DNA of 59,554 nucleotides, filler included, from Dugesia japonica (GCA_001938525.1; 6 parts of 6 records of this genome joined end to end with filler, not necessarily neighbours in it), one strand, 5' to 3'. Positions 157-42,300 are shown, counted from the first letter of the whole stretch. The notes: generated by a model not told the origin, from the letters alone. Made by a program: numbers and translations.

Positions 157-1656
157 CTATTCGCTCAAAATAATCGGCTTGGCAAAAAATTTAACAAAAA
201 CAGAATCATTTTTAATGTATCCTGGATAAGAATTCAAAACTTTCCGTTTAATGAATTCCGGGAACCCGTAACCATCACTGAAATCATTTTCTGGTTTTTG
301 ATAAATCGCCATTTGAGTTTCATCTGACGGATCGTAAAACAAATGCAATTCTTTATTGTTGTTTCCAATTTGATCAAGAATACTTATGGAAATATCATAT
401 TTAAAAGGCCATTCAAGTATCTCATCAAACCGACTCTGCATTAGTTGAAATGTTATAGAAATAAAACCAGAATGATGACTAAAAGGAACTAAACACATTC
501 GTAATTTATATCCATTTCGTGAAGTAAAAAATGGTTTACTATACACATTACGTTTATCATTATAATCTTTAGCATCTTGTGTTAATCGCGAGAAATAATC
601 TATTTTCCAAATATATTCCGTGAAAACTTTTTCATATTTTAAATTATTTTGTTCTAATTGTCTTTGAATTGAAGAGATTTCAGACTCGTTCTTTTCCACT
701 GCGGAACGGATATCATTCAAATCTGGATTACAGCCGGATTCATTTGAACGGTTGTCTCTTATATCTGTAACCATTCTTTTGAGCGCATCTAATTCCATTT
801 TAGTATTATTGAAATCAGTTCTCAATAAATCATTCTCTCTTTTCACATTTTCCAATTCATTTTCCACCAAATCTAATCTGTCTTTGTAATCTTTATTTTC
901 TTTATCTTTAAATATCGAATTAATCTCATTCGTTTTCACTTCATTCGCTAAATTCGTGATCATTTCTAGTAATAATTTCGTATGCTCAAATCCGTTTTTA
1001 CATAAATGATCACTCATTTCTATTTGACGAATTGATGAAGCATTACAACCCATCTGGGAAAAAGGACATTCCGACGGTTTACTTATACACACTCTAATAT
1101 GATTTTTCAATAATATTATATCTTCTATTCCACATTCATAAGGACACTTGGATTTATATTGATCACACAATTCTTCACTATCTATATTGTAATGTAACGA
1201 TTGTATTTCACTAGCCTTAAATTCTTTTTCACAAAATTTACAAATACTAGATTCTTCAATTACATCAACATTATCCTCATTAATTAATGGATACTGACAT
1301 ATTTTTATATGATCATTAAGATTTTTTAAACAATCTTTGAAATCGCACATATTATTCGTACATTTAACCACCATTTCACTTATTTTACGATTGGCAAAAT
1401 TATCAAATGTTAAATTTTTTTCAGACAACAATTGAAGAGGACAATCTTCACCATCTCCTGGACAATTATCTTTCCCAGAATTTAAGTAATTCAATAAACA
1501 TTGTTCGCAAAATCTACAACCGCATGTAGACTGCTTGGCATTAATTAATATATTTTTGCAAATTGTACATTTTAATGTTTCGGAAACTGAATTTTCAAAA
1601 TCAAGTGGTGTGTCTTTTAAAATTGCCCAGATACTTTCAAATTTCGCGCTTTGCAT
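157..1656 (-). CDS. TNF receptor-associated factor (TRAF)-family protein: RING, TRAF zinc fingers, coiled coil, MATH/TRAF-C domain; intronless
   Basis: Intact 499-aa ORF. RING CTIC...CGCRFCEQC...CP; Zn fingers CTNNMCDF..H...C and CPFSQMGC..H; heptad coiled coil; MATH motifs YIWKID, YSKPFFTSRNGYKLRMC, FDEILEWPF, GYGFPEFI, YIKNDSVFVK. Confidence 0.95.
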   Translation of the reverse strand: MQSAKFESIWAILKDTPLDFENSVSETLKCTICKNILINAKQSTCGCRFCEQCLLNYLNSGKDNCPGDGEDCPLQLLSEKNLTFDNFANRKISEMVVKCTNNMCDFKDCLKNLNDHIKICQYPLINEDNVDVIEESSICKFCEKEFKASEIQSLHYNIDSEELCDQYKSKCPYECGIEDIILLKNHIRVCISKPSECPFSQMGCNASSIRQIEMSDHLCKNGFEHTKLLLEMITNLANEVKTNEINSIFKDKENKDYKDRLDLVENELENVKRENDLLRTDFNNTKMELDALKRMVTDIRDNRSNESGCNPDLNDIRSAVEKNESEISSIQRQLEQNNLKYEKVFTEYIWKIDYFSRLTQDAKDYNDKRNVYSKPFFTSRNGYKLRMCLVPFSHHSGFISITFQLMQSRFDEILEWPFKYDISISILDQIGNNNKELHLFYDPSDETQMAIYQKPENDFSDGYGFPEFIKRKVLNSYPGYIKNDSVFVKFFAKPIILSE

Positions 1657-4779: not shown

Positions 4780-7403
4780 TACAACGATCATTACAGTCGG
4801 CTGGGCCAACTTCTGATGAGCATTGCCTCAGTATCCTCGAAATGATGATACAACAATTTATAATATTGTAGTAATTAATAAATAATTACTTGTCTCCGTA
4901 AATTTAATAAAAATGCTACTTGGGATTTTTAATTTTAAATCAACAAGAGCTGAAAATTAACATTTTTAAGAGTAATTTTTATGAAAAATGATTTTTCTTT
5001 TATACTCCATTGTATCGTCAAATTTTGACAGATACAGTTGGCGTCCACTTCAGATTTCTGTTAATGCAAGAAATCGTACGTTGCTCACCTGTGATTATTT
5101 TTATTTTTTGTTAATTCTGTAGTGGATTATGTGCTCATAAATGTTCTATGTTTTTTACTCAAGTAAAGACGCTTAAAAAAATAATATTTTCTCAACAAGT
5201 AATAATATTTCTGAAACTTGTAAGAGTTTTAGAAATAGAGATAACTACACAATCACATAAAAATATGAAAATATAAATACTGAATTCTTACATAAAATCA
5301 TCAGACATTCTTCTACATATAATTTTCGTGTTATAATTCCTCCAGGTTCATTAGAAATAATAATATTTATTGAATAATAATAATTTTAATTAAATTTATC
5401 GATAATAATAATAATTTCACATATTTTTTATAAAATTATAATAATAATACAATTCTTGTACTTAAACCTGACTAATAATCTATTATTTTATTATTTATAA
5501 TGATTATGATGATTAATTCTGCTTTTTTCCCTATGATTTGTTTTGAAAGTATCAAAATATTTTAATACAATTATTTGTTTTATTCTTTCAATTTCTCTCA
5601 TAAATATACTTTTTTTTAATATATGAATACTTTCAACAGATTTTTATAAATTATAAATATGATATATATTCCTTGTTTTATTTACATTCTCCTTTTCGAT
5701 CACTTAAACAATTTGATTTATTTTCTGAGTATATTTTACTTTAACCATCTAATTACTGATTATCTTCAATTATTATATCTTTTAATATTTAATCAATTCT
5801 TCGTTTTCTCGACAACTTATTACATCTTTGTTTTCTTTTTTACCGTTTTACCCTAGATCTTGTTTAATATTTTCTTGTGCTTTTTAATTTCAATTATAAT
5901 TATTTAATAATCATTTGCTTACCATTTTGTTGATTAATATTTCTTTTATTTCAGACGATTTTCTTATTAATTTTAATTATTACTCTTTCATTTGTTTCAT
6001 TTTTTGCCTTTCTTACTTTAATGAAGGCTGTTTCAGCCCAACACTATTATTTGAAGAAATTTTCTGGGAATTTAAAACTTACTTTATTAAAATATTCTAA
6101 TGAAAATTTAAACTAAAATGTAAAACAGAGTAATTATGATTTTAAATTATTGTTGGGCTGAAACAGCTTCGAGTAACATATGAAAAGCAGAGAAAAAACA
6201 AATAAAGGGTTAATAATAAAATGAATAAGAAAATAAATCAAAGTATTTATGTAATCGAAAAGGAGAATATAAAATAAAATAAGGAATACATATCATTATT
6301 TATAATTTATATAAATGCGTTGAAAGTATTCATGTATTAAAATAAAGTTATATTGATGAGAGAAAAGGAAAGATTAAAACAAATAATTATATTAAAATAT
6401 TTTTATATTTTAAAAAGAAATTATAGGAAAAAACAGAGAAATAAATCATCACCATTATAAATAATAAAATATTAGATTATTAGCCAGGTTTAAGTGAAAG
6501 AATTGTATTATTATTATAATTTTATAGAAAATATGAAAATGTAAAATTATTATTATTATCGATAAATTTAATTAAAATTATTATTATTAAATAAATATTA
6601 TTATTTCTAATGAACAAGGATGAACTATAACAGGATAGTTATATATAGAAGAATGTCTGATGATTTTATATAAGAATTCAGAATTGAAAATTTCAAATTT
6701 TCATGTGATTGTGTGGTTATCATTATTTAAAANTTTTTACAAGTTTTAGAAAATTATTATTTTTTAAGAAAAATATTATTATTTATAATGAAAGAGAAGG
6801 AATTATAAAATAAAAGTTATATGTAGAAGAAGGTCAGATGATTTTACGTAAGAATTTAGGATTGTCATGTTCATATTTGCATGTGATTGTGTAGTTATCT
6901 CTATATCTAAAACTCTTACAAGTTTCAGAAATTTATTATTTGTTGAGAAAATATTATTTTTTTAAGCGTCTTCACTTGAGGAAAAAACAGAACATTTGTG
7001 AGCACATATTTCACTACAGAATTAACAAAAAAATAAAAACAATTACATCCATATTTGGAAATCTCTGTAGAAACTACGGGTGAGCAATGTACAATTTTTT
7101 GCATTAACAGAAATCTGAAGCAAACAGTATTTGTCAAAATTTGACGATACAGTGAGGTATAAAAGAAAATCGAAATCAATAAAAAATCAGTTTATAAATT
7201 CAATTATTTTCTGGAGCTCTTATTAGTCGATTAAGCCGAACTTTTAAGCAGCATTTATTATCAGCCAAAAGGAAAAGAAAATAAGTAATTATTTTACTGT
7301 TTATTTAAATATTAGAATAATATGCAATAAATGAGGAAAAGCGTACCAAGGTTAGGATCGATACCAGTCGACCCTGCTGGCGATGATGAGGTTGTGCTAT
7401 GAC
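4780..7403. repeat. Large imperfect inverted repeat: two back-to-back LTR-like units (about 4780-6043 and 6151-7403)
   Basis: gctgtttcagcccaaca (to 6043) mirrors tgttgggctgaaacagc (from 6151). tgtatcgtcaaattttgaca (~5011) mirrors tgtcaaaatttgacgataca (~7132). Collinear similarity between these points; outer ~200 bp only weakly alignable. Confidence 0.85.
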
Positions 7404-9190: not shown

Positions 9191-9290
9191 NNNNNNNNNN
9201 NNNNNNNNNNNNNNNNNNNNNNNNNNNNNNNNNNTTAATTAATTAANNNNNNNNNNNNNNNNNNNNNNNNNNNNNNNNNNNNNNNNNNNN
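9191..9290. other. Artificial assembly spacer (N44-TTAATTAATTAA-N44); repeated at 18227, 26455, 37098 and 48538
   Basis: Identical 100-bp structure five times; the 12-mer carries stop codons in all six frames. Confidence 0.95.
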
Positions 9291-10703
9291 TTTTCTTGAT
9301 TATTTACAATATAAACCCCAAGAGAAATTGGTTTTTGTTTATTATCGTTGGTGTCGGTCCATGCCTCAAAATCACCATAAACTGCAAATGGAAGTTTTAT
9401 CATAAAATTAAAATCTGTAAATTCATGAAATTCTTTTTTTTCAAATTTAATTTTTCTTGGTTTGTGATGAACACACTCTTCTTGATGATTATCAACTCTT
9501 TCTTGAGAGGAATATGCATTCATACAATTTATACATAAATAATTATCAATTCCTCGCCGAGAAATAAATGTGTTTAAGTTTTTACATAGGACAGTGATTT
9601 TTTTAAAGTAACAAATTAAATTTATTCATATTTTGTTCTGGTTTACAAACAGTGTGAGAAATATGAGTTGATTCAGGAATTGCATTTGCTTTTTCAATCT
9701 CAAAAACATTTATTTGCCAATTATTATTTTTTTCAAATCTTTTTATATCATCATTTGTTAGTGGAAAATTTACACCTGTTAAAGCAAATTCATTTAAATG
9801 TTTTTTATGAAGACTTACTCGTGTTGGATGTCCATATCTATATCTGTGTGCTAAAATTGAATAAAGAAAACATTTATTATCATCGTTTTCAATATTAATA
9901 ATTTCTTTTTGTTCCACCTGCGCATGATTTATAAATACCAAGTTTTATTTTATAATAAACCGCATAATCTAAAGTCCAATTACTTTCATTTCTTTCACCA
10001 TTAATTTGTGTTACTAAATCTGTTATTATTTCTTGAACTCTCTCTCTCTCTAATATCATTTCTTATTGTTATTCTTCTAATGAGGGAATGAGATTTAAAT
10101 CTTCTTTCTATTCTATTATTATTATGATTATCATCATCATCATTGGATCTATTATTAATTACTGTTTTTGAATAATTTGCCTCTACACCAATATTAACAT
10201 AAATTCTTTTTCCAAATTTAAAAAATCTTGTAATAATTTTTTCAATCTCATATTGATAATAAAATTCTTTACTTTTAAAAACTTCAATATCTCTTAATAA
10301 ACAAATTTCAGATTCATCAAAATATGTAATAACAAAATATTCATATTCAGGTCCTATAAATAATTCATCTATTTTTAATTCCTCTGGTCTTTCTCCAGGA
10401 AGTTTTTCAAATAAATCAACTACAAGATCCTCTTCGTTTTCATTGTGCGTTCTTGATGCATAATGATTTTTCGCTTTTTCTTGATTAGGAATTTTTTTTT
10501 ACAAATGTAACAATAAACATTTTAACACAAACATTTGAATTAAAATGAACAGTTAGTAGTTGTTGTGTTAAAAATCTATCCTTGCATCTTTCACACTTAA
10601 ATCTATAACCTCTTTTACCACAATTTTTTCTATGGGTTGCAAGACCCGATTGTCTTTGAAATAATTTATTACAAATGTTACATATGAGTGTTAATGCTTC
10701 CAT
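9291..10703 (-). pseudogene. 5' part of a Polinton/Maverick-type B-family DNA polymerase with N-terminal C2H2 zinc fingers (frameshifted)
   Basis: Consecutive minus-strand blocks: C2H2 fingers (CNICNKLF..LATH; CERCKDRF..LTVH), INIENDDNKCFLYSILAH..HPTRVS..GVNFPLTNDDIKRFEKNNNWQINVF, then Exo I-like LPFAVYGDFE. Truncated by the spacer. Family call is from motif recognition. Confidence 0.7.
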
Positions 10704-12606: not shown

Positions 12607-14800
12607 TGGCAACTACGCCGAAATTAATGCGTTAACTAGAGCAAAACGCGAAGTAAGGCAAAAGATTTTTTAAAATTTGCCTCAAAAAACCCAAGAAATC
12701 TTGATTCAGAAACCAAGTTTCTTTGATGGTCTCAGTCAAAATGCCGAAGATTGGATGTATACAACATATAAAGATTGTGATCGGGTTAAAACGGCATTAA
12801 ATTATGTTGCTGACAGAACTCTATTTATTGAAAACCTTATTAAAAAATATGGATCGATTTTTATGGCATCCAAATTTGATTTAGGANTCACTACATTGAT
12901 TAAGCATCATGTTAATACTAAAGGACCTCCAATTTCTCAAAATCCAAGAAGACAACCAATGTATTTAGAAGATAAAGTTGATAAACTAATTGACGATTTG
13001 TTAGAATCAAAAGTTAATGCGTTAACTAGAGCAAAACGCAAAGAAAGACAAAGGATTTTTTTTAATTTGACTCCAAAAACCCAAGAAATGTTGATTCCGA
13101 AACCAAGTTTCCCTGATGGTCTTAGTCAAGATGCCGAAGATTGGATGTACACAACGAAAGATTTTGCGACATTCAATTAAATGGAAGTTGCTTTTGCATT
13201 AGATATGCTTCTAAGAAGTGATGCAAAACAGTTATAGGAAGAATTTACCTGTTCAAGTGATTCTGTTATTAATGAGGAGGTTGAAAAATGGTTTATGGAA
13301 ACCTTTACAAATACAAAATTGATTTTTGATAAAGTAAAGGAATTTTCTTCAATAAAACAGAGAACAGACGAGAAGTACAGAAATTTTGAGATTCGAGTGA
13401 AAAAAATGGTTACAGATGTGTTTCAAAAGAAATTAACAATTGAAGAAATTGCAAGAGCATTTATTCTGCAAGGATTAGAGAGTGAGAAACTACGCGAATC
13501 CTTTGCTCGAGCTCCATCAATGTCTGACGAAAGAAGAAGAGAATATGCAATGAATTTAGAAAAATTGGTTTCGCATTGAGAAGTCCATGTCATGAAACCA
13601 ACATATTCGCAAGCGATTAGTAAACCTCGATATTATAATCAACGTTCAGAAGGGAAGACACATTTTGGCCACCAAAGGAATTCAGGAAATTTAAAATCTT
13701 TAGAAAATAGAAATCAATCTGAAAAATCTACTGCATATAAGGATCAANATAAAAATTTTTCACAATCAAACAATAATGAGAATTTTTCTTATTAAGCTAT
13801 AGGATCAATGAAGATGATTGCTATGAAATTCTACAATCCGTGTAGCGGTAAAACAAGGTGCATGCGTTTGTTGTGGTAATATGAGTAATAGACGAAATGA
13901 ATGTCCACTTAAGAATAAATGCTTAATTTGTGCTAAAAATGGTCCTTATTTCAAAGACTGCCATTTAGATACGTCCGTCAAAATGGAAGAAAATCATGTA
14001 TTCATGACGAAGAGCAAAGTGCAAACAACATGAATAATTTAGATGAAATCCATGATATTAATGGCAGCGAAATGTAAAAAAACTCTTACCAACTCCCTGT
14101 AGCTATTTCGACGGTGGAGTTGAGTTAATAAATTCTATTATTAATAGAGATAGAAAAGTGGAAGTTGAGATGAATGTTGAAGAATTTAGAATGTTTCAGA
14201 AGTTAGATGGACGGCAATGTAGTATTATGAATTGCAATGGCTGTGATATTGAAATGTTGTGGGATTCTGGAGCATCAATAACAGTGATGAGTGAAGAAAA
14301 TTGGATCCGAATTNGTGCACCTAGTATGATAAAGTCAGAAGTCAGGTGTTTTTCTTACTTGTACTTGCTTGTTATTATCGATAGATTTAGCAAACTATTT
14401 CGACTGATAACTCTTATTAAACAAGATGAAACAGCAATATCAGATGCAATAAAGAACCAATGAATTTATCGATTTGGAAAACCAAAATCAATCTTATATG
14501 ATCGGGATAGAGTTTTTGAAGATAGCAAATAAAACGAATTGTGTGTAAAATTTTGAATAACACAAGAATATACATCACCTTGCTAACATCAAGCAAACGG
14601 TCTAGCAGAGTGAGAAGTTAAAACTGTCAAAGATATGTGTCACTTCAGTGAATAGTGATAAGAACAGATTTACTTGGGATAAATACATTCCCAAGATTGA
14701 ATTTTCAATTAATGCAACATATCAAAGCGCTATTAAGAGATCTCCATTTGAAGTTCTATATGGGCGAAAATTGCTGTTACATGGGTTGTCGAGAAATGAG
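12607..14800 (+). mobile_element. Internally deleted Ty3/gypsy element: gag, protease, integrase (RT/RNase H mostly missing)
   Basis: Gag KPSFFDGLSQNAEDW; knuckle remnants CVCCGNMSNRRNEC and CLICAKNGPYFKDC; protease LWDSGASITVM fused directly to integrase YLLVIIDRFSK..FGKPKSILYDR..ANGLAE. Confidence 0.88.
14077..14122 (+). promoter_or_regulatory. Putative -1 programmed ribosomal frameshift signal at the gag-pol junction
   Basis: Slippery A AAA AAC (14077-14083), 6-nt spacer, then stem CAACTCC-CTGT...ACGG-T-GGAGTTG (14090-14122), located between the end of gag and the protease. Confidence 0.65.
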
Positions 14801-16152
14801 CCCGCTAATGAAACAAAAGTATAAATATACTTACAGTATATAAACTTGTCAATATTGTCATTTGATCACTCTTTTATAAAAACTAAAATGCGGACTTCGT
14901 CATTTGCGACTTAAGACCGTTTAGTTAAAAATAATAACGTATATTTATTGTAATATAGCAACGTCAAAAAAAATTTTCAAAGTAAATCTTTTTATTAAAT
15001 ATAAGTGTTAGCTGTCGATGATTCCCCTAACATTGTAAGAATTATCAATTATGTATAATAGATATTATGATGACGCCGAGTACATTGAAATGAAACGTCA
15101 ATAGTGTTAATATTAATTAATTATAATTATCAAATGTTAATGTAAATAGAAATGTAAATAGAATATAAATATTATAATATTTAATAGACTGAAATTTAAA
15201 AATAACTTACTATGAACTTTACAAATTCAATAACAAATCATAAACTGATAATCAAATGATAATCCACTAATATAAATTCCAAGTTCCATTAGGTTTTGTT
15301 AATACAATTGAATAATCGAAATAATAAGACTGTACTTTTAAACGAAAATATTTTTAAGTTTAATAATATATTTTATAATATATATTATGTTCTAAATTTG
15401 TATTATATTTCTTACTTAGTTTTCGCGGTGGTTACCCATTATTCAAACAACCACTCCGAAAACTTAAGCGTTTATAATTTCAAAAATTCCTCACTTTAAC
15501 TCTAATTATCTTTTCCTCACAATAAGAATTCTATATAGTATAATATATTTATAAAAAATATCATTATATTTATAATATATAGTAATATAGTAATTTATTA
15601 ATATATAGTAAATATATTAAAATCATATAAGGTTTATTATATAACGGTACTATAATTTTCTAAACTCATCCAATTGTTGACTTGCCTTTACAATAACCAA
15701 AAGACATCTCAACAATATAAAAATTACAAATTTTCGAAAGTTTATAACAAAATCATTTTAATAAACTCTCAAAATGTTTTAAGACAAAAAATGAAGTTAA
15801 AAATAATAAATTTTTGTTGAATGATTTCACCACCTCCGTTGGATTCTTGATAATTCAGCACCATAAAAACACAATATTTAACAGTGTCTTTTCTCAGTTT
15901 TCTTATTGTTGGGGTCCCACCTGAGTTGATCTTGAAAAATATGCTGGCCGGGGAAAAACGATCCTCAGTGGTACCCCTTTAAGAATTTAAATCTAATGTC
16001 CCTGGATTCAGTGCAGAGCGGTTGACCTTCATCACTGATTTGAGGTTCACACTCCTACACCTTTGGTTTGGGTTCCTATTTATTTCCCTATTAGTTCAAT
16101 CATTTAAATAAATAAGCAAAAATGCTATTATTAATAGATATTTTAATATACA

Positions 16153-16514
16153 TTACATCTCTTCCAGAGCCCCTAGGTCTAACCATTGGGTCGGCTCCTC
16201 AAGAATAAAGTTAAATGGCGCGATTTCATCGTTATCATCCTAGTCAAGCCATGGCGCATTGCCCAATTGGTGGTACAAATCGGAGATATACCGTTTTAGA
16301 AAGTCTACTTTATTTTGGAGAAGTTGTTTTGTTTGTTCCGCCAGGTCTCCCTGCTTTTTAATGATAACATCTAACTTCTTAATCAGCTTATTCCGTTGTG
16401 CCAGATGCTGCAATAAAACACGCTCGGTCTGGCGTTTGTGATGTCGTTCTAATAGAAGTCACCGGATTATTCTATGGCAACGTCTTAGACTGTTGGGGAA
16501 TATAATTCGTGGCA
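16153..16514 (-). pseudogene. Cassette copy 1, ORF-B (~120 aa, coiled-coil-like; 2 internal stops)
   Basis: tttag|TG CCA CGA ATT gives [M]PRIIFPNSLRRCHRIIR*LLLERHHKRQTERVLLQHLAQRNKLIKKLDVIIKKQGDLAEQTKQLL..; homologous to 21031-21342. Confidence 0.75.
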
Positions 16515-16646
16515 CTAAATAAAATGCATGATTAATTAATGTATTTCTCTTAAAATAAATGAATTATTAATTGACTAATAGTTATGTTGGAAGAATTTAA
16601 TAAAAGGAGGGAGTTATTTATTTATAATTTACAAAAATATCAAATT

Positions 16647-17005
16647 TCAAAACCGCAATGTCTGTGTGGTTTTGTCGATCATCAACGGTTTGGGCGGCAT
16701 CACTATTTATGGCTTTAAAATGTATTTGACCAGTTTATTTTCTCGGTCTTGGTATGACCAGATGACTTCGGCGAAGGACTCTATTTGGGTCTTCCCTACT
16801 CTTTCCTGGGCATGTGATGCTTCAGCCTCCTTCCTAAATTCAACACATTTGGCTTTATACTGTTTTACTTTGGCTTCTGCAGAAGCGGTATCTGCCTCCC
16901 AACACCGCTTGGCGAGGCGATAGAGGTCCCAAGTCATCTCTTGGTCCTCGCTTGATTCCTGCATCTTTTTTATCGAAGCAGAGAAACTATTCAGAGAGGG
17001 GTGCA
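16647..17005 (-). pseudogene. Cassette copy 1, ORF-A (~119 aa helical protein; 1 internal stop)
   Basis: tttag|TG CAC CCC gives [M]HPSLNSF..MTWDLYRLAKRCWEADTASAEAKVKQY..LMIDKTTQTLRF*; homologous to 21454-21809. Confidence 0.78.
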
Positions 17006-17203
17006 CTAAAAGTAAGTAACAAAACATTAAGATATTTAAGTTGTAATAAAGACAAGATAACATTTGAAATTCTAATTAAACACACTCACTTAGACTTTAA
17101 AGTTGCTAAATCCTAAAATAGGTTGCCACAACACATAAATAGACCCAAGAAACATATTTTTTATTCCATAGCAAAACACAAAACACAAAAAAATTAGAAT
17201 GAT

Positions 17204-17620
17204 TTAAGCTCCATTCATGTCAGAAGTATTATTGTTTTCGGAGATACCACCACCTGCCTGATTCCGCAGCTCCAATAAGGTACTGTTTACAAATTCGGTC
17301 AACCTAGTGAAAGGCGGAAGGTGAGCGGTGGACACGGGTATGACCGAAAGCCCGTCCTGCCATACACTGGTGGTCTGAAGAGTCTCACGGTTTGTGACTG
17401 TGGTAAGGTGTAGTATTTCTTGTGTACGATCATAACCCTTCCATTGATAGAAGGCCTGTCACTCGGCTGCAGCCCACTCTCTTTCATTATCTGTGTCCTC
17501 CTTGAATAAATTTGAATAGTCTACAAGAACTCCAGCGTTTCGGTAGTAAGGGTTCCAGTATCGACGGAATATCACTCTATTGGTGCGCCGATCGAACAGT
17601 GTTTCCCATACGTGTTCCAT
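17204..17620 (-). pseudogene. Cassette copy 1, ORF-C (138 aa; 1 internal TGA)
   Basis: tttaATG: MEHVWETLFDRRTNRVIFRRYWNPYYRNAGVLVDYSNL..E*QAFYQWKGYDR..; homologous to 22101-22441. Confidence 0.75.
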
Positions 17621-17777
17621 TAAATTTATTTGGTTCTGTAATAAAGTTGAATTAAAATTAATTTTAGCTATTTACGAACTAAGTTAACAAAAATGTGTTG
17701 CAGAAGGATTCAAAATTTTTGACTAAGACTCGCAATATATATTTAATTTACGCCAGAGATAAAACCAAATACACTGA

Positions 17778-17968
17778 TCAGTCTTCACTGTCTATATCAA
17801 CGCTACAATGTAATGGAAATAAGTCGACGTAACATTGAAGATCCAACTCATCGGGGGTAGGGATACTATCTGGGAAGAGAAGATGTGCGATTAACTGCTT
17901 TCGGCAAATTCGCTTACATTATCGCCGAATAACAGCTAAGGTTTAGGTTAAGATGCTTGAAATTAATC
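17778..17968 (-). pseudogene. Cassette copy 1, ORF-D (3' portion)
   Basis: ILT*TLAVIRR*CKRICRKQLIAHLLFPDSIPTPDELDLQCYVDLFPLHCSVDIDSED* aligns with 22546-22731. The 5' end is undefined. Confidence 0.6.
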
Positions 17969-18326
17969 TGAATGAAAATTATCAATGATAATAAAAGATT
18001 TCTTGTTAATTGAACATAACCCGGCGAGAGTGATGATTATTCGTTCCCAAGATTTTTCGTAGAAGCTAATCCTATTTTTAGCATAAAGCGACTTGATAGT
18101 GATACTATTGCTCTTATCTCCTAATAGTAACCGTACTGATAACGCTAGTAAAATTCATAATAAGAAAATAATTCTGAAAAACTAGATATCATAGAACTTT
18201 ATTAACAAATAGATTATTAGTGATACNNNNNNNNNNNNNNNNNNNNNNNNNNNNNNNNNNNNNNNNNNNNTTAATTAATTAANNNNNNNNNNNNNNNNNN
18301 NNNNNNNNNNNNNNNNNNNNNNNNNN

Positions 18327-20968
18327 AGTATAAAAGGATTTAATAGACTCGGAGAAACAATGTTAGAGAAAAACGAGGAAAGATTGGATTGCGCAAATAA
18401 CAGCTCATTGGAAACGATTGGAAAGATACGTGTCGAAGTTATAGTTTCAGAGGTATGCAAGGAAGTAACATCTATAATAGTAAAAAAACTAATATCAAAT
18501 CTAATTGGTGGAGTGGAATTTCTGAATATGTTTAGGTATCATCTTCAAAAACGTGCAGGGTAAACACCAATAATCATCGAGAAAATTTTGTTTGCAACAT
18601 TGAGACAAAATTTGAAAGACAAATACAGACGGGTGACCAATTGAGACATGCAATGGAAATTCTAGAATTGATTGACTGCAATTATTCAGAATAATGAGAA
18701 TGTATTTATGGCGGATAAATGGGACATTGTATGTACACACTTAACAATGCTTCGAATAATCACTACAGGAGGTTCAATTAACATAAAACCGTATCGTCAA
18801 TCAATGAATCTAGAAAAGATTGAAGAGGCCATCAAGAATTTATATTATAATAGTATCATCCTGAAGTGCAATTTGCAATAGAATATGCCATTTATCCTTT
18901 TTTAGAAAAAGGAAAAAAGGATATGCAATTATGCTTAGACTTTAGACAGCTCAATGAAATAACNNNNNNNNNNNNNNNNNNNNNNNNNNNNNNNNNNNNN
19001 NNNNNNNNNNNNNTTTTCCTATGCCAAATGTGGACAAAATGCTAGATGCTTTGGAAGGTACGCAGTATTTTAGCTCAATAGACTTGGAAAATGCATACTA
19101 CCAAGAAAATTTCAGTGAAGAATCTCAAGAAAAACGAAAGAAATCGACCAAACAAGGGGAATTTTGTTTCAATAGAATGCCTTTTAGAATTGCAGCAGCA
19201 CTACGTACGTTCCAGGAAATGATGAATAAAGTAATCGGAAAAATAAAGGGAGAGATGGTTTATCTAGTTAATATTCTCATATTTACCCAAACAAAGGAGC
19301 AACACAATGAAATAATCAATAAAGTATTAACAGAAATTAAGAAGGCTGGTCTTAGAGTTAATCCGGAGAAATGTCAATTCTTGCGAAAGAAGATCAAATT
19401 TTTGGGACACCTTATCAGTAAAGAAGGTGTCAAACAGATCCAACTAAGATAGAATTAATAAAGAACTTTTGTAAACCAAAAAGACGTTAAGAAAATGAGA
19501 AGCTTGTCGAGAATTTGCAATTACTATCACAAATTTATTAAAGATTATTCGAAAAAAGCTAGATTGCTGGAACAACTCTGTAGTGTAACAAGAAAATTGA
19601 ATTGGCGAATAAATTAAAAGAAGTTTTTAATGGAATGAAAGAATGGACAACAATGGGCAAGAAAGAGTAATTGCATATGAATCGCACGAAATGACGAGTC
19701 ATTAAAAAGGATATTATACTTAGCGGAAAGAATTACTCGCAATTTAATACTTTTGTATTCATTTTAAAAATTATTTATCTGGGAAGAGATTTATTCTTAG
19801 AACAACCATAAAGCTATCACTTTTATGCTAAATACAAAGAAGCCGATTACATCACAGTTTAAAATCTGGATTAATTATTTGAGTTGTTTAGATATAAAAT
19901 TGGAATATAGAAAAGGATCGCTTCATACACATGAGGATATGTTGTCAAGGAGTAAGTTCGATACATGTTCAAAATGTCTAATGTCACATAAAAATTCCAA
20001 AAGTAAAAAATTAAAAAACAAGGATGTTAAATACAGTAGATATTTAAGGAAAACAAGGCAATTTTGAAGAAAACGATGAAGGAACATGGATGGTTAAGTA
20101 GACGAGGTTATAATGAGGACACACCATCTTTTCTGGCATGCTCAAGCAGAAAAAATAGCGTAGTGTATGAAAAGTAAATATAACGCAAAACATTTGTGGA
20201 ACAAAGTCCAAGAGATTGTTCCAACCTGTATAATATGCCAGAAAGCTAAAGTGTTGACAACAAAACGAAGGAAGAAACGAAAAAGACACAGACAACTGTT
20301 ATTTATAGATGTGTGTGGACCACTGCCGGAGACAAGAGGTCATAAAAAATATGTTCTCGGTATAATAGATCAATTCAGTAAGTATGCAGCCTTAATAGCA
20401 AAGACAAGACAAGATGTAGATACCATACGGAAAGCAACAATAGAGAAGTGAATATTAAAGTTCGGTTGTCCGAGATAAATTCGAGTTAATTGTGGAAGAG
20501 CATTTGAGTCTAAATCAATGAAAGATTTTGCAGCAAAGCATGAAATTACCCTCAATAATTTGAGTCCATATCATCATAACACAAATGAAAAAATCGAGGG
20601 TTAGTTTAGAACTATGCGAGATATGATAAATGAGCCACTTAAAGAAAAAACCTCAGATTGAGTGGATGTATTGCTAGAGATGGAATTTACCTTAAATGCA
20701 ACAAAACAGAAAACTAAAAGAAAAAGCCCTTCTAAAATCGTATTTGGGAAGAGAATAAGCAGAGAAAAATGGTACTAAACAAATACCCAGAGTGCATAAA
20801 GAGCAAGATAAAGAGAAGTTAACCGAAAGACAATTCGTTTTCTGTGATGAAGTCTTAGTGAAAGTTGAAACCAGAAACAAGATTGTTATGAAGGAGCTTT
20901 TAAGATCAAGAGAAAGATTCACGACAGACGTTACATCCTAGAAGATACAAACGGAAAAAGTTAGCAAG
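18327..20968 (+). mobile_element. Degenerate Ty3/gypsy pol (protease, RT, RNase H, integrase)
   Basis: PYRQ, LCLDFRQLN, YFSSIDLENAYYQ, FNRMPF, VYLVNILIF (decayed YxDD), KCQFL..KFLGHLIS, CIICQK, KKYVLGIIDQFSK, SPYHH; many frameshifts. Confidence 0.93.
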
Positions 20969-21030
20969 AGGAATTTATTTTACACATAAAACATTTAATT
21001 CTACATAAAATTTAGCGCCTCAGAGTCAAG

Positions 21031-21342
21031 TCACTGGGAGGGATAGCCATTCAGAAAATCAAATGCGGCCTCATCGTCGTCGCTATTCCACCTTGTCCAT
21101 GACCCCAGCTCTAATCGGGTGGATGAGCTAGCGATGTATCTGTTTAAGAAGTTAATTTTCTTCACAAGAATCTGCTTGGTACGTTCGGCCAACTCTCCTT
21201 GTTTTTTAACTATTAGATCTAATTTTTTGATTAGCCTATTCCGTTGGGTAAGATGCTGTAACATAGAATGTTCATTTTGTTTGGTAAATTGCCGTTCTAG
21301 AAGTAATTTTTGGATTAATCGGTGGTAGTCGTATTCTTGGCA
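21031..21342 (-). pseudogene. Cassette copy 2, ORF-B
   Basis: tttag|TG CCA AGA ATA gives [M]PRIRLP, then a frameshifting deletion, then HRLIQKLLLERQF..MLQHLTQRNRLIKKLDLIVKKQGELAERTKQIL..FDFLNGYPSQ*. Confidence 0.75.
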
Positions 21343-21453
21343 CTAAAAATTATATAACATAGATTTTTTAACACAACAAATGAATCAGAAATTCAAAGTA
21401 GATTCAACATGAAATATTTATTTAAAGACATGACAGGAAAATCATATTAACGA

Positions 21454-21809
21454 TCAACTAAAAGTTTGTGTGGCCTTATCTACCATCAAAGCCTCTAAAG
21501 AAATATGGTTCCGCATTTCAAGTAAATCGGAAACCAGTTTATTTTTACGGTCATGGAGGGACCGGATAACATCCGCAAAGTATTCCAGTTGGCGTTTCCA
21601 AAAGCGCTCTTGAGTATGGAAGGCATCCGCTTTGAGTGGGTAATTACGACATTTACTTTGGTAGCGTTTCACTTTAGCATTAGCCGCAGCAGTATCGACC
21701 TCCCATTTTCTCTTGTATAACCGGTATAAGTCCCACGTCATGTCGAGGTCCTCACTTCCTTCATGTAATTTCTTAGTGGGATAGACGGATCGGTTAAGTG
21801 ATGAATGCA
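21454..21809 (-). CDS. Cassette copy 2, ORF-A (open frame, ~118 aa, unknown function)
   Basis: tttag|TG CAT TCA gives [M]HSSLNRSV..MTWDLYRLYKRKWEVDTAAANAKVKRY..LMVDKATQTFS*; uninterrupted, and similarity to copy 1 starts at the AG|TG. Confidence 0.75.
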
Positions 21810-22100
21810 CTAAACAATTAAGATACAATTACCCATTTACTGGTTGTTACAAATAAGCTCAATTAACTTGCTGGCCATACTTAATTAAATAAAAGGTGAA
21901 AGAAAAACCTCCCAGCCTACAAATAATATTTCAGGTAATTTCTTCTACGGTTACACCATAGTTGAACGTAAAAGGAAGTCAGATTATGATGGCGGTATGT
22001 ATTCAAATGTTAAACCTAAGTAGAATGATTAGACATAAAACAAAGATCGCAAACAGACTATTAATTAAAACAACTTTATTTGTAACAAACAACATCAAGA

Positions 22101-22441
22101 TCAATTTCTGGAATTTTCAATGTTTTCCAAATTTTCCAAGTTTGTAGGGTTCCCAGGCTCCCTAACTTTCTATAGGAGATTATCAATGGCCACTCTTATC
22201 CCAAGGGGAGCCGGTAGAGTCCCATAAGAAAACTGGGTTATCAAACTACGGGTTGGGCCATTCCATGAGTGAAAGTTCTGGCTTTCTCCTAAATCTCGGA
22301 TCCGTTCAAGTATCGTTTCCACAACAGGCAGGTTAGAGCGGTCTACTAACATACCGGCTCCTCTATTCTAGGGGTTACCTTGACGCCTGAAAATCATCCG
22401 CAACATTCGGTGATCTCAACTTTGCTCCCATTTATAGTACA
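22101..22441 (-). pseudogene. Cassette copy 2, ORF-C (internal stops)
   Basis: tttag|TG TAC TAT gives [M]YYKWEQS*DHRMLRMIFRRQGNP*NRGAGMLVDRSNL..ESQNFHSWNGPTR..; the N-terminus aligns without gaps to copy 1 ORF-C. Confidence 0.72.
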
Positions 22442-22545
22442 CTAAATTAAAAAAGTAAAATTTAAATATGATTAAAGACACAATTACTAATTACAGAATT
22501 ATTAACACCAATAAGGATTTATTCACACCCAAACAGATATAATAT

Positions 22546-22731
22546 TCATGGTTCATAATCCAGATCTAGACCAGATTGAAGCGGAAACAACTCTTCAAAG
22601 CATCACAGATCTGTTTCATTCGGGGATAGAATCAGATCTGGGACCAAAAGGTATCCTACCAATTGCTTCCTACGGGATCTTTCCCTCTTTTTACGGATAT
22701 ATTTTACAGTTTCCGTTAGAATATAGGTCAT
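22546..22731 (-). pseudogene. Cassette copy 2, ORF-D (3' portion)
   Basis: MTYILTETVKYIRKKRERSRRKQLVGYLLVPDLILSPNETDL*CFEELFPLQSGLDLDYEP*; homologous to 17778-17968. Confidence 0.6.
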
Positions 22732-22959
22732 TTAATAAGGGTAATCTATGACCTAAATACAACAAATTCAATATCAATGATGGTGCATATGGGATTTTAA
22801 ATTCAGGTTCGACCTGTTACTAGAAAATCTCAAACGGAACATATCGTAATTTACTCCAATAATCTGCGAAAGGTTAAAAAATTTGATTTAATAGTCATAT
22901 TTAAACCGAATAAAACAGTTGACATTTAATAATAAAGGGGCAATAATGTTTCGTGAAAC

Positions 22960-23285
22960 CGAAAACTCATATAACAGTAATAATACTGGGATTTTTACTA
23001 ATCATGATCGTGATAATAAAAATAATACTGGTGATGATAACCAGAAAGGGATTGCGGTTAGTGACATTAATAATGACATGAAAATAATAAAAACAATGAT
23101 AAGAAACCATAACTACAAAAATAATAATGAATGTCCTACTGATAATGATGATAGGAATAACGATAATGACAATATTAATAATAATGTTACCAATATCAAT
23201 CATAATAATAATAATATTAATAATAACAATAATAATAATAACAATAACAGTTACGATAATAATATTAATAGTAATAATGATTTTC
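22960..23285. repeat. Degenerate (AAT)n low-complexity tract
   Basis: aataat/gataat/aacaat repeats that generate Asn- and Ile-rich spurious ORFs in several frames. Confidence 0.8.
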
Positions 23286-24279
23286 ATTAAAGCGTCGGCC
23301 ATAATATCACTGAATGATGTTCAATGCCCAATTGATGTTGAGTAAAATTGATGATAATCTTTTCAATCATAGGGACACGAAGACATCCACCAAAATTATC
23401 ATAAGACCAGTGTATCGCAATAAGAATCACAAGTTGAGAAAATTCATCGGGTGTTGACACGGTGATTCCACTGGTGATGAGTAATGATGACTCTTCTCGA
23501 TTGTGGATGAGTTTGTTAAAATATGAAATGACCAAGATATTTTTTACGTGAAGTCATGAAACGATAGTTTAATACCGGGATGTGGTTATGCCACCATAAT
23601 CATTAACTTGTCTGCACTAATTCGGCAGATGGGCTAACTAGATAGGACAACATACGGCTGGTGTTGCTAGTTATAATGATGGCAAAGGTATCTCCATAAA
23701 GATAAAGTTGGTATGTATCACTACTGATTAACTATCATTCCTTAGCAATATTGTACCAAGGTCTCAATTTCCATTAGGGGCCCTAATTTTCTGGATTTAA
23801 CGGCAATTATTGCTGGCGTGCATACTCTTAACAAAATAGGCAGCGGAGAAAGTTAAATCATCCTCAGTTCGTGATTTACACACATCTCTCATATCACCAG
23901 ACAGCAAATATCTACTACCAATATTGATTTGTAGTTATTGCTATTATTGAATTTAACTGATATCAGTTGTGGAAATAATTTACGAAGAAAATTATATTAC
24001 ATTTCCAGTGGCAGAGTGACCAAGATTGAATACTATTTAATTTAATATAATCAACTCGCTTTTAATCGTTTATGGAAAATTTTAAAATAAAACTTTACAC
24101 TGTTAATTATTATCGATGAATCTAAAATTAAATACGTAAGTTTGATCAAATAATCCTTATTTATTTATATAACAAAGCATCTATTCATTATTCATACACT
24201 AAAAACAAGAATCATACTTACTAGTTAATAGTAGACTCGTCTGCAACAGGAATTGTAAATTTTAACCATCTTCTCCTTA

Positions 24280-25184: not shown

Positions 25185-25196
25185 ATAATAATAATA

Positions 25197-25265
25197 CAGT
25201 CAAACCTCCCCATAAAGTCACTCAGTTCCGGTCCCGATGGTTGACGTTATAGGGAGATTTGACTG
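25197..25265. mobile_element. 69-bp Tc1/mariner-pogo-type mini-MITE
   Basis: 24-bp TIR CAGTCAAACCTCCCCATAAAGTCA / CAGTCAAATCTCCCTATAACGTCA (3 mismatches), flanked by TA on both sides within an AAT tract. Confidence 0.8.
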
Positions 25266-25756
25266 TAATAATAATAACAAGTAAATAAGGTATTTTTAAA
25301 TTTTAGATTATATAGGGAATTTCATTTCAGAAATTAAAATTTTCATTTCAAAATTTTCAATATCTAAAAATTAATTTTTCCACTGATCTTTAAATTAAAC
25401 AAATATTTTGTAAAACAAATTTTACTTATTAAATTTGTTTTTCAAAATATTTATATATAATGAAGTTAAATATACTATAATTAATAATGATAATTACAAT
25501 TATATATAAATATTGATCTGTTTTTCTAAATGCAACTTTTGAATTGAATTATCAACCAGTATAAATTATTTCAATCAACAAATTTACAAATGAAAGTACA
25601 CCATACATGCGCAATATCACAAAAAATTATAAAAAAACAAATTATTTGTTTTAAAAGGTTATTTTTAGCATTCAATTTTATATTCCTTGGTAACGAAATA
25701 GTAAAATAATTATGTTTTATGGAATTTTAATATTGCTTCTAAAAATTTGAATTTCA

Positions 25757-31064: not shown

Positions 31065-33250
31065 TAAAAAAACTTTACACAACTCAATGCAATAACAGAA
31101 AGACATGCTTTTCTTATGCCAAATGTGGACAAACTGCTAGATGCTTTAGAAGGTGCACAGTATTTTAGCTCAATAGACATGGAATAAACATACAATCAAG
31201 TAGAACTTAGCGAAGATTCTCAAAAAACGACAAGTGTTTCCACCGAACAAGGGCACTTTTGTTTTAATTGAAAACCTTTGGGAATTGTGGCAGCACCAGG
31301 TACGTTCCAGGAAATAATGAATAAGGTGATTGGGAAAATAAAAAGAGCAATGGTTGATCTAAACTATATTCTCATATTTACCAAAACAAAGAGGCAACAC
31401 AATGAAATAATCAATAAAGTAAANAATTCTCGTCTAAGTGTAATTCCTGAGAAATGTCAATTCATCCGAAAAGAGATCAAATTTCTGGAATACGTTATCA
31501 AGAAAAAAGGTGTCAAAACAGATCTAACTAAAATAGAAGCAACTAAGAACTTTTGTAAACCAAAATACGTTAAGTAGATGAAATGGTTTTTGGGAATTTG
31601 CATGTTTATTAAAGATTATTCGAAAAAGGCTAGATTGCTGGAACAATTGTATAGTNAGCCGAGTAACAAGAAAATTGAATTGGCGAACGAATTGGAAGAA
31701 GTTATTAATGGAATGAAGNAAGCACTAATTATGTCTCCAATACTATGTTTTCAAGATATAAATAGAGAGTTTATTTTGAACACGGATGAAAGTTTCTACG
31801 CATTTGGTGCACAACTATCTGAAAGGGAATACAATGAACAGAAAAGAATAATAGCATATGGTTCACACGCAATGACGAGTCACGAGAAAGGAAATTGCCC
31901 TACGCGTAAAGAATCACTCGCCATTTACTACTTTTGTATTTATTTCAAACATTATTTATATGGAAAGAGATTTATCCTTATAAGGCTAACACTATTATAC
32001 TAAATACCAATAAACCAATCACATCACAGTTTCAAACTTGGATTAATTATTTGAGAAGTTTAGATATAAAATTTAAATATAGAAAAGGATCGCTTCATAC
32101 TACTGCGGATATGTTTTAATGCTATACACATGCACAATGTCTAATGTCAAGATCCCAAGAGTGGACGATTAAAACAAGAATGTTAAATACAGTGGATATT
32201 CAAGACAAACAAGACAATTATGTAGAAAACGATGAAAGAACATGGATTTCTGATGATAAAGTATAAAAGGTTATAATAAGGATACACCGTCCTTTGTATC
32301 ATAATAGTAAAGAAAAGTAGCAGCGTATATGAAGAATAAATATAAAGCGAGAAATTTGTGGACTATAAAGTGCAAGAGGTCGTCCAAAGCTGAATAACAT
32401 GCCAGAAAGCTAAAGTGTTGACTACAGAAACTAAGGAAGAAATTAAAATCAAGCAGCCAGCTGAAATGTTTGATTTGTTGTATATAAATGTGGGCAAGCC
32501 ACTGCTGGAGAAAAGAGGTCGGAAAAATATGTTCTATGTATAATAGATCAATACAGTAAGTATAAAGTCCTGATAACAATGACAAGACAATATGAAGATA
32601 CTATACGAAAAGCAATATTGGAGAAGTGGATATTAAAGTTTGGGTGTCCGAGAGAAATTAGAGTTGATTCTGGAAGAGCATTTGAGTCTAAATCAATGAA
32701 AGATTTTCCAGATGAACATTTAATCAGCGTCAGGTTTTTGAATTCATATCATCATAACACAAATGGGCAAATCAAGAGACAGTTTAGAACTATGCGGGAT
32801 ATGGTAAATGCAACACTTAAAGAAAGAAAAACCTCAGATTGGGTGAATGTATTTCCAGAGATGGAATTTAACTTGAATGCTACAAAACAGAAGACCCTCG
32901 GGTAAAGCCCTGCAGAAACCGTATTTTGGAAGAGAATAAGCCGTAAAAATTGGTACAAAACAAGTACTCAAAGAGAACACAAAGAACAAGATAAATAGAT
33001 ATTGACCAAAAGATAATTCAAGGTTGGTGATGGGGTTTTAGTGAAAGTTAATACAAGAAACAAGAACCAAGATCGTTATGAAGGACCCTATAAGATCAAA
33101 GGAAAGGTTCATGACAGGCGTTACATCCTGGAATATACAAATGTAAAAAGCAAAAGAAACGTAGAGAGGATCAAAACAATTCCTTAAAATGGGGATGTGG
33201 GTATGTTTTAAAAAGCGAGTTGAAATTTTGGTGTGATTATTGATCATTTA
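31065..33250 (+). mobile_element. Degenerate Ty3/gypsy pol (RT, RNase H, integrase) with PPT and LTR start
   Basis: Same family as 18327-20968: APGTFQEIMNKV, FILNTDES, IIAYGS, FGCPREIRVDSGRAFES, YEGPY; ends AAAATGGGGA-TGTGGG (~33186-33201). Confidence 0.92.
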
Positions 33251-39318: not shown

Positions 39319-42300
39319 ATGCTAAAGTATCACATATACAAGCATTTATGTACTGTAAGAATTATCTTAAAATGTTTATAATTCAATATTTTTAATAGAA
39401 CCGTTCACTTTTGACATCATTTGTTAAAATGTATTCATCAGTAGCAATTCCAAAAACAGAAGTAACTAGTTTACCTAATAACTTTCGAGTGGTATCAGAA
39501 AATTGGAATTCAAGAACTTCGACTGTTATTTTCCAGCATCATTTTTTATTTTATAAATATCTTAGGTTGGTGTGTGGGTTGATGCTGGAAGTCGGTATGA
39601 AACTCCTGAAAATAATGGATCTGCCCACTTTCTTGAACATATGGCCTTTAAAGGTACAAATAAAAGAACTCAAAATTCATTGGAACTTGAAGTGGAAAAC
39701 ATGGGTGCCCATTTAAATGCATATACTTCTCGAGAAATGACAGTTTTCTATGCTAAATGTCTCAATAAAGACATTGAATGGGGTATAATGAGTTTATATT
39801 TGTATTGATAATTAATGAAAAGTATTAAGCTGTTGAATTGTTGTCCGATATTGTGAAAAATAGCAAATTAAAAGATGACTTAATTGAAAAAGAAAGAGCA
39901 GTTATTTTAAGAGAAATGGAAGTGAGGTTAACTTTTTCTAAATATTTTACTTTTCTATGGATTATTTAAGTTTTAACGATACCTTTAACGAATTTTACAG
40001 GAAATAGAAAGCACTTATCAAGAAGTCGTGTTTGATCATTTACACGCTACTGCGTTTCAAGGTTCGACGTTAGGTCAAACAATTCTCGGAAGTGAAAATA
40101 ATATCAAATCATTAAATCGCGGAGATTTGAAAACGTTTATCAATACGCATTACGTGAGCCCGAAAATGATTCTCACAAGTGTGGGTGGTGTCGAACATAA
40201 ACAAATGGTTACTATAGCGAATAAATATTTCGGAGATCTATCGGGAGGATCAGGTGAACGAAATATTCCTCCGAGTCGTTACACAGGATCAGATTTCAGA
40301 CAGCGTAACGATCGGATGCATCAAGCGTATATAGCTGTGGCATGTAAAGGACCCGGTTGGATTCATGCCGATACGTTGGCACTGATGATTGCCTGCTCAA
40401 TCAATGGATCCTGGGATCGTAGTCATCCAACTATGGGCCCATCAACCAGCCAGTTGGGACAATCGTTTTTTGCGTCGGGCAATGTGCACAATTTTCAGAA
40501 CTTCTTCACATGTTATCACGATACATCTCTTTGGTGAGTGATTTATTTGTCAAATCTGTATCAAACTCAAATGCTTTTATACAATTCTTTATTTTTTCTT
40601 CTTTGTTTTTTTAATCTCGTTTATCGATTCATTCCCGTAAGAACTGTTCTTCTCTGTTGAGTTTTCACATATTCTCTACCAACTAATTCTTTATTTCTCG
40701 TAAAATTTTAATAATTTTTCTAATTTTATAACAAGTTTTTATTTTTACAATGCTTGATATTTGTTTGTGTTGCGAACATTTCATGATTAATTACGATTTT
40801 AATCAATTAAAATAATTGACCAATCAGAGGAATACAATAATATTTTTGTAATTTTTATAGAAATATTAGAATAATTTTGTTTTATTTCGCTTCTCTTTTC
40901 TTTCTATCTTGATTGGTTTATCTATCTTCAATCTCTTCCTATGATTATTGACACTCTGAGGGGGGTGCTTACCGGGCATTGTTCATCTATCCCGGTTCAT
41001 GAGGGTCTTTACGGTAACCCGTTTGCTCAGTGACGATTGATTCTGTTACAAATGACAAACCGACATGGTTACACTATACGTTAATTTGAGTTATAACATT
41101 TATACATCAGGGCGATCCTGATGACGCAATCGGTTCTGGAGCTACCTTCTTCATCTCGAACGTTTTCCATAATGTTCTTACATTTCCGATTACGATTGCT
41201 TCTCTGTAGGAATAGCATTTAATTATTTCTATAATCATTCCACCTTTACCGACTCATGCCTACTCGATCTCACAATATCAACACTTTCTTCTTTAGCGGG
41301 TTATATTTTCCTCCTTTACTTCTGACTTCTCAGGAATAATTTAATGGAATACCAATTGAAAGCCCGCCCGGTTTATTTGTAATTTTTCTACGTTTATTCC
41401 ACAGTTTCAATGCGATTTAACAAGTGTATTTCACGCAGGGGGTCTATTGGTCATGTGAAGCTAACGGTTTATGGACCATACATTAAGGACGCCCAAAAAA
41501 ATAGCACTTTTTGAGTCCCCCTCCCCATTGTCCCTTTATGTCCATTTCCAGAACCCCCATATTGCTAACACGTGCCCCCTTTGTGGAGACCCCCTCTTCT
41601 TAGGGGACGTGCTTAATGGGTGGTCCTTTAAAGAAAACCATTGATTGCTATTAATTAAGAATGGCAAAGTAATAGAAAGAGCTAAAAATATTTTGTTGAT
41701 TTGGTTGATCTGCTCCTGAGGATATTTAATTGATTGTTATTTCATGCTAGTTTATGTCTTTTTTATTTATTATGTTCCCCAAAATTTTCTATTAATAGTT
41801 TGCCACCATTCTTCTTTTATAACAAGTTTTTATTTTTCCAATGCTTGTGTTCCGAACATTTCATGATTAATTACGTTTTTAGCCAATTAAAACAATTGAC
41901 CAATCACAAGTTCATTACTAATTTTTTATTCTTTAATAAAAATATTTGAATAATTTAAATACCAATTGAAAGCCTTTAGAGCTTTCCCTGTTATTTATCT
42001 CTCTTCACTAACTGTTTCAATGTGATTTAACGATTATTTCACAGGGGCATCTATTTGTCATGTGAAGGTAACGGCTTAAAGGAAACGATTGATACGATTA
42101 TTAAAGAATGGCAAAGAATTTGTATGAATGTAACGACTGAAGAAATAGAAAGGGCTAAAAATAATTTGAAAACTAATATATTGTTGCAATTGGATGGTAC
42201 AACTTCAGTTTGTGAAGAGATTGGTCGGCATATGATTACATACGGACGCCGAATACCACCAGACGAATTTCTTCACAGAATAGAAGTGATTTTTTTTCTT

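Follow-up and report, generated by a model that had tools for sequence, protein, structure and literature searches.

The window analysed here, 59,554 nucleotides (nt) of Dugesia japonica DNA (GCA_001938525.1), is AT-rich eukaryotic sequence with short GT-AG introns, remnants of mariner elements and a number of decayed pol pieces of Gypsy type, and its minus strand carries two diverged, decayed copies of a cassette, each made of four unrelated small open reading frames (ORFs) of about 60-140 codons. At the starts of several of these ORFs the motif TTTAG/TG stands where a start codon would be expected, and splicing to a leader ending in A may complete it to AUG.

Two copies of a four-gene cassette

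Comparison of the copies by tblastx gave four blocks of homology, arranged D, C, A, B in both copies (46-54% identity), including ORF D, a fourth cassette ORF missed by an earlier reading of this DNA made without database searches (the sequence-only reading). No third copy was found within the window, so that the comparisons below have as their base these two copies, both broken: each bears stops, one frame change is found between them, and both are dead. Copy 1 ends at an assembly gap (18227), about 260 nt above D. The ORFs are designated below by letter and copy number:
17780..17963, minus strand: ORF D copy 1 (D1), decayed, ATT where copy 2 has ATG, stops at codons 7 and 15
17204..17620, minus strand: ORF C copy 1 (C1), plain ATG, stop at codon 54, AATAAA at 17165
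16647..17006, minus strand: ORF A copy 1 (A1), 99 codons open from TG, stop at codon 100, AATAAA at 16622
16153..16515, minus strand: ORF B copy 1 (B1), stops at codons 19 and 92, first in-frame ATG at codon 120
22546..22731, minus strand: ORF D copy 2 (D2), plain ATG, one internal stop, AATAAA at 22523
22101..22442, minus strand: ORF C copy 2 (C2), stops at codons 9, 25 and 91, AATAAA at 22080
21454..21810, minus strand: ORF A copy 2 (A2), 118 codons open from TG, AATAAA at 21422
21001..21343, minus strand: ORF B copy 2 (B2), 20 nt shorter than B1 near its start, AATAAA at 20979

The uncorrected ratio of nonsynonymous to synonymous differences per site (pN/pS) between the copies was 0.33 for A, 0.37 for B, 0.45 for C and 0.35 for D, compared with 0.75-1.73 in the other two frames; pS was saturated throughout (0.81-0.90 across the ORFs, 0.81-0.87 in A and B). 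Judged by this comparison, all four ORFs, D, C, A and B, were evidently real genes under purifying selection. The homology of A1 to A2 continues beyond the stop at codon 100. Codons 2-23 of ORF A, which precede an internal Met shared by the copies, showed a pN/pS of 0.32, compared with 0.34 for the remainder of the ORF (1.19 and 0.86 for the same codons in the other frames), indicating that the coding sequence of A reaches back to codon 2, over the 22 codons before this Met. The signal was weak in codons 2-14 of ORF C (0.72), and the first three whole codons of ORF B include two differing sites, both synonymous in the frame set by TG. There is no in-frame ATG common to both B copies.

TTTAG/TG at the ORF starts

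The sequence-only reading had reported five minus-strand TTTAG/TG sites at ORF starts, and all five were recovered at the positions it gave:
17004..17010, minus strand: TTTAG/TG of A1, AG at 17007-6
16513..16519, minus strand: TTTAG/TG of B1, AG at 16516-5
22440..22446, minus strand: TTTAG/TG of C2, AG at 22443-2
21808..21814, minus strand: TTTAG/TG of A2, AG at 21811-0
21341..21347, minus strand: TTTAG/TG of B2, AG at 21344-3

Two further statements of that reading proved correct: C1 has TTTA-ATG at 17620, at the same aligned codon as the TTTA-GTG of C2, and the homology between copies begins at TG. In the 30 nt before it, block-wise agreement is confined to the last 5 nt (5/5 nt in A and in B; 6 nt in C, followed by A in one copy and G in the other). 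The proportion of GC rises across all six sites, from 0.15-0.27 before to 0.38-0.48 after. Its claim that TG opens the conserved frame held for A1 (99 codons) and A2 (118 codons); it did not hold for B1 and C2, where the TG frame stops early (codons 19 and 9), nor for B2, whose frame has changed. In B2 the 20-nt shortfall falls just after codon 4, the TG frame stops at codon 24, and the conserved body is in the frame starting at the T of TG, open for 103 codons.

Of the 881 GTGs in the window, 1.7% have TTTA directly before them, and among spacer positions TTTA is found at 2.9%. The window contains 400 acceptor-like sites (3.46 per kilobase per strand), 7.25% of them followed by TG, and the chance of an in-frame acceptor-TG site within 30 nt, estimated from this background, is about 0.0025 per ORF; the independent cases are two or three ORF families, not five sites. 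The TTTAG/TG starts are real and, on these figures, non-random.

Acceptor-like sites were defined by YAG, at least 12/20 pyrimidines and no AG in the preceding 20 nt, a rule passed by 5/5 of the TG sites. An acceptor-like AG lies 0-21 nt from all eight ORF starts, the remaining three starts being preceded by:
17968..17969, minus strand: acceptor-like AG 4 nt before codon 1 of D1, passing the rule
17636..17637, minus strand: acceptor-like AG preceding the C1 ATG by 15 nt, passing the rule
22746..22754, minus strand: pair of acceptor-like AGs upstream of the D2 ATG, at 14 and 21 nt, narrowly failing the rule (11/20 pyrimidines)

The C1 acceptor lies in a 13-nt segment absent from C2. Farther upstream of D2, the minus-strand segment 22749-22865 has a strong acceptor-like site at 22865 and is possibly a further short exon before ORF D; 100 nt within it are shared with a contig of sequencing run X1.

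The spacers between cassette ORFs measure 102-284 nt and align no better than shuffled sequence (43/300 shuffles scoring as high for D-C, 291/300 for C-A and 145/300 for A-B), TTTAG being the sole conserved island in otherwise unalignable sequence. Because TTTAG has been kept while the spacers around it align no better than shuffles, selection on an acceptor is suggested, and the TTTAG sites are likely to be real splice acceptors. The comparison of the two copies at the DNA level thus lends support to the proposal, made in the sequence-only reading, of acceptors placed at codon 1. Among the five introns of a host gene in the window (MPP-beta; introns placed by eye), 0/5 are followed by TG. AATAAA or ATTAAA follows each ORF, with 78-269 nt to the next acceptor in all six spacers; this layout, a hexamer and then an acceptor, is that of alternative last exons and equally that of a trans-spliced operon. 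Like ORF D, the C1 acceptor and the hexamers had escaped the sequence-only reading.

Proposed completion of the start codon

We consider it moderately probable that the TTTAG sites are acceptors whose TG is completed to AUG by a cis leader ending in A. The cassette, present here in two decayed copies and likely part of a mobile element, would have a single upstream non-coding exon, ending in A and devoid of a start codon, which would be joined to any of four acceptors. The A of this leader would complete the TG of ORFs A and B, and perhaps that of C in copy 2, to AUG; D and C1 would be served by this leader as well, with an ATG of their own. Each ORF would form a separate alternative last exon with a poly(A) site to itself, and A and B would be translated only from mRNA spliced straight to them, unspliced or read-through RNA being silent. 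ORF C has a whole start in one copy and a split start in the other, suggesting that either form can turn into the other. For the full proposition the chances seem evenly balanced: an element that runs several unrelated genes from one leader, the last nucleotide of which is the A of their starts, with the choice of splice site deciding the protein made, read-through RNA locked, and genes shifting from one kind of start to the other. Six of the eight starts (A1, A2, B1 and C2 through TG; C1 and D2 through ATG) fit a non-coding leader with A as its last base; the exceptions are D1, with ATT at codon 1, and B2, with its frame change. The earlier description of the cassette genes as untranslatable until spliced could apply to A, B and perhaps C2, and fails for D2 and C1, which carry their own ATG.

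A possible end of the leader was found upstream of copy 2:
22853..22855, minus strand: candidate donor A/GT, of low confidence, the only A-ended one of eight donor-like matches in 24100-22750

It lies about 100 nt before the D2 acceptor and has no clear counterpart in copy 1. The same data would also allow near-cognate initiation after a leader ending in another base: with G, C or U as its last base the codon would be GUG, CUG or UUG, or the genomic GTG could be used unspliced, in either case with low protein output. Codon 1 is GTG in the DNA at 5/5 sites, D1 has ATT where D2 has ATG, and exons commonly end in G, which would rebuild GUG. Against this, the corresponding codon of C1 is a true ATG, and unspliced GUG would leave the conserved TTTA unexplained; initiation at GUG has no need of TTTAG, so that its conservation speaks for an acceptor. 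In addition, T at -3 is a weak initiation context. We regard near-cognate initiation as unlikely, although it is the strongest of the alternatives.

Somewhat less likely still is an operon of the flatworm kind, in which trans-splicing of a spliced leader would yield the single mRNAs. According to the accessible portion of PMC12582326, flatworm operons consist of same-strand genes no more than 300 base pairs (bp) apart, and spliced leaders end in AUG in parasitic species; the accessible portion of PMC8629364 gives a mode of 100 bp in Macrostomum. The cassette resembles such operons in its same-strand spacing (102-284 nt) and in having a poly(A) signal followed by an acceptor, the distance between the two being inside the 300-bp rule at 6/6 spacers and near the Macrostomum mode, and an AUG-ended leader would be in frame at B2 and C1. 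However, at A1, A2, B1 and C2 such a leader would open only 4, 23, 9 and 15 codons, respectively, yet codons 2-23 of ORF A were selected in the TG frame, and the fixed TG would be left unexplained. The sequence-only reading had dismissed an AUG-ended spliced leader as giving the wrong frame, which is the case at four of the five TG sites and not at B2.

All five TG sites are in splice phase 1, as they would be if a common coding exon ending in this phase gave all the proteins the same N-terminus and xTG were an ordinary internal codon. Such an exon would leave it unexplained why two or three unrelated ORFs have TG at +1/+2 (7.25% in the background), and the other starts are in different phases (D1, phase 2; C1, phase 0; D2, phase 1 or 0) with a TAA directly before the ATG of D2, which makes a shared coding exon improbable. 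Even less credit is due to the absence of any splicing, with the GTGs as decayed ATGs in dead copies and TTTA as T-rich DNA: the stops and the frame change, the frequency of TTTA in the spacers (2.9% of positions) and the plausibility of this account for C2 taken alone are in its favour, but the G is common to the A copies and to the B copies despite saturated pS in ORFs that were still selected after the copies split, and acceptor-like AGs lie near 8/8 starts. A non-canonical TG acceptor placing a leader AUG in frame is scarcely credible, TG acceptors being rare.

Several observations weigh against a cis leader ending in A. No donor has been established, host donors being degenerate and too varied for prediction; upstream of D the copies align no better than shuffles (26/300), and copy 1 ends at the assembly gap at 18227. 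The conserved body of B2 sits in the frame that a whole-codon leader would read, and the TG-frame case in B comes from B1 and from the two synonymous differences in three codons. A1 has in-frame ATGs at codons -7 and -19, absent in A2, and the GTG of C2 may be plain decay. The copies compared are two, both broken. Reads from four of the 24 listed sequencing runs were mapped, to copy 2 only (6, 215 and 13 reads in the three raw runs); depth was 0 in these three runs at the bins holding the three TG acceptors of copy 2, and none of the four read joints, and none of the 15 loose ends listed out of 79, falls at an acceptor. The mapped reads neither support nor refute splicing at the copy 2 acceptors.

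In ORF A, 25 reads of run X7 cover 21546 (first mates 18 plus, 7 minus), opposite in orientation to those on the adjoining pol remnant at 20940 (first mates 42 plus, 124 minus), which, given the usual stranded library, may point to RNA in the sense of ORF A. The sign is weak because at 21742 5/5 reads have the orientation opposite to those at 21546 and because the reads stem from relatives. In run X1, which consists of contigs and is guessed to be RNA, 45 contigs share one variant at 21546, indicating that the cassette family has many diverged members; one X1 contig spans parts of both A and B. Contigs resembling ORF A are 85-95% similar to copy 2.

Products, parent element and known systems

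The products of A and B are basic (22 K+R of 117 and 17 of 97 residues, respectively) and likely helical. No relatives of ORF A were found by a word search among proteins of near length, by a profile against 1.84 billion representatives (0 matches at E 0.001) or among metagenome and viral contigs; the best match among PDB sequences had an E of 0.09, and the best in the ESM Atlas was 0.82, with low recognition. The search run for ORF B gave no relatives. ORFs C and D were searched by Pfam scans alone, plus an exact look-up for C1 (0/3 sequences found); in the Pfam scan of the cassette ORFs no family reached the cut-off and env was not matched. Three weak Rfam matches were all below gathering scores. 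Our best guess is that the cassette proteins serve the element as accessory regulators.

Each copy is situated 3' of a pol remnant on the plus strand and is antisense to it:
18958..20960, plus strand: decayed Gypsy-type pol (reverse transcriptase, integrase), directly adjoining cassette copy 2 at its 3' end, probably another element
12674..14824, plus strand: decayed gag/protease/integrase remnant, 1.3 kilobases from the 3' end of cassette copy 1

The integrases of these neighbours are 37% identical, less than the cassette ORFs (46-54%). A further, 77-79% identical pol at 31109-33150 is without a cassette, and of the 166 reads of run X7 that cover 20940, in the pol beside copy 2, 98 depart at 20956-20961 and continue in an ordinary pol tail, with a depth of 0-1.5 in the bin that follows. 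The proposal that would assign the cassette to the neighbouring Gypsy elements lost ground on account of the integrase divergence and of the family of the pol beside copy 2 being mostly without a cassette. By these comparisons the neighbouring Gypsy family probably does not carry the cassette as a regular component, and the cassette is more likely a separate unit nested among pol remnants; perhaps it is part of a long terminal repeat (LTR). When a polypurine tract or 3' LTR was sought, the best match of the pol tail (23546-23590) was not significant (37/200 shuffles). A polypurine tract/LTR start at about 17875 was dropped as it falls inside ORF D, and an LTR at 23580-24001 is an unproven candidate. 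Upstream of copy 2, a stop-free minus-strand frame of 88 codons without a Pfam match (23287-23553) is possibly a further cassette gene and is followed by an ATT-rich tract (about 23100-23290); no relatedness of this frame to ORF D was found by tblastx between the copies.

Elsewhere in the window we recorded an intronless TRAF gene of 499 codons with RING, TRAF finger and MATH domains (160-1656, minus strand), a fold-back element (4993-7169) whose long inverted arms are 80-85% identical, and broken minus-strand frames at 9242-10498, which resemble the N-terminal portion of polymerase genes of the Polinton/Maverick type and in which the one Pfam match is a weak C2H2 finger. Another repeat, about 80 nt long, is dispersed in at least four or five copies (11354, 26657, 45793, 49064, 56516); a 28-nt segment at 15006-15033, starting with TGTTAG and ending with CTAACA, resembles two LTR-type termini close together; and a GC-richer patch of about 250 nt adjoining B1 (15830-16080) is unmatched elsewhere in the window. 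An inverted-repeat element of 91 nt at 25186-25276 is like a miniature inverted-repeat transposable element. The MPP-beta/core-1 gene (39399-42470, plus strand) has five introns, and its 1.5-kilobase intron holds a partial duplicate of the start of the next exon (41334-41471).

In the adenovirus major late unit and in the accessory genes of complex retroviruses, one leader and alternative acceptors serve several unrelated proteins, in adenovirus with separate poly(A) sites. Those ORFs are known to have their own AUG or to receive a whole AUG from an upstream exon, unlike the A/TG of the cassette, and there is no sequence relationship. In the accessible portion of a preprint on Drosophila errantiviruses (bioRxiv 10.1101/2023.08.03.551782), the env ORF of the springer subclade is spliced to an AU dinucleotide from an upstream donor, a precedent for an intron-split start in a Gypsy-type element that supports a leader ending in A. 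Both cases, as far as that portion goes, share a Gypsy-type context and an ORF without a full start; in springer an upstream exon supplies the missing part, and the DNA pattern of the cassette would fit such a supply. The springer split is AU/G, in one gene and experimentally mapped, whereas that of the cassette is A/TG, in two or three unrelated small ORFs known from DNA. The springer env ORF is in sense with the gag-pol of its own element; the cassette is antisense to both neighbouring pols, which are probably not its parent. Nor do the cassette ORFs, with about 60-140 codons and no Pfam family at cut-off, have the character of F-type envelope glycoproteins.

The antisense ORFs termed aORF-3R in Grande, RIRE2, Retand and Boty (PMC7264820, accessible portion) are, like the cassette, orphan, antisense and 3' of pol. 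They are present in most family copies, unlike the cassette, which is mostly absent from the neighbouring pol family, and the accessible portion describes no split start codons. The giant planarian Gypsy elements Burro and GYPSM1 (PMC6431247, accessible portion) likewise have accessory coding capacity in a similar genome, but as long-polyprotein domains or an upstream ORF, with no link to the cassette shown. No description of the cassette or of a multi-gene A/TG design was found in the literature searched, with subscription papers mostly outside it; the accessible portions of PMC6431247, PMC13524379, PMC5408684, PMC11410931 and PMC8629364 provide context and do not describe a shared-leader A/TG design. 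The split start codon itself is already known; several genes sharing one would be new.

If the proposed completion of AUG is correct, it would give a transposon a compact on/off switch for each gene at the level of splicing and would carry the split start, known for a single gene in springer-type env, over to a unit of several genes. The absence of these proteins from protein collections would be accounted for as well, since gene callers require an ATG or an annotated exon, and conserved YAG/TG starts would be worth seeking in repeat families. Being under selection and without known relatives, the four cassette proteins are candidate new transposon regulators.

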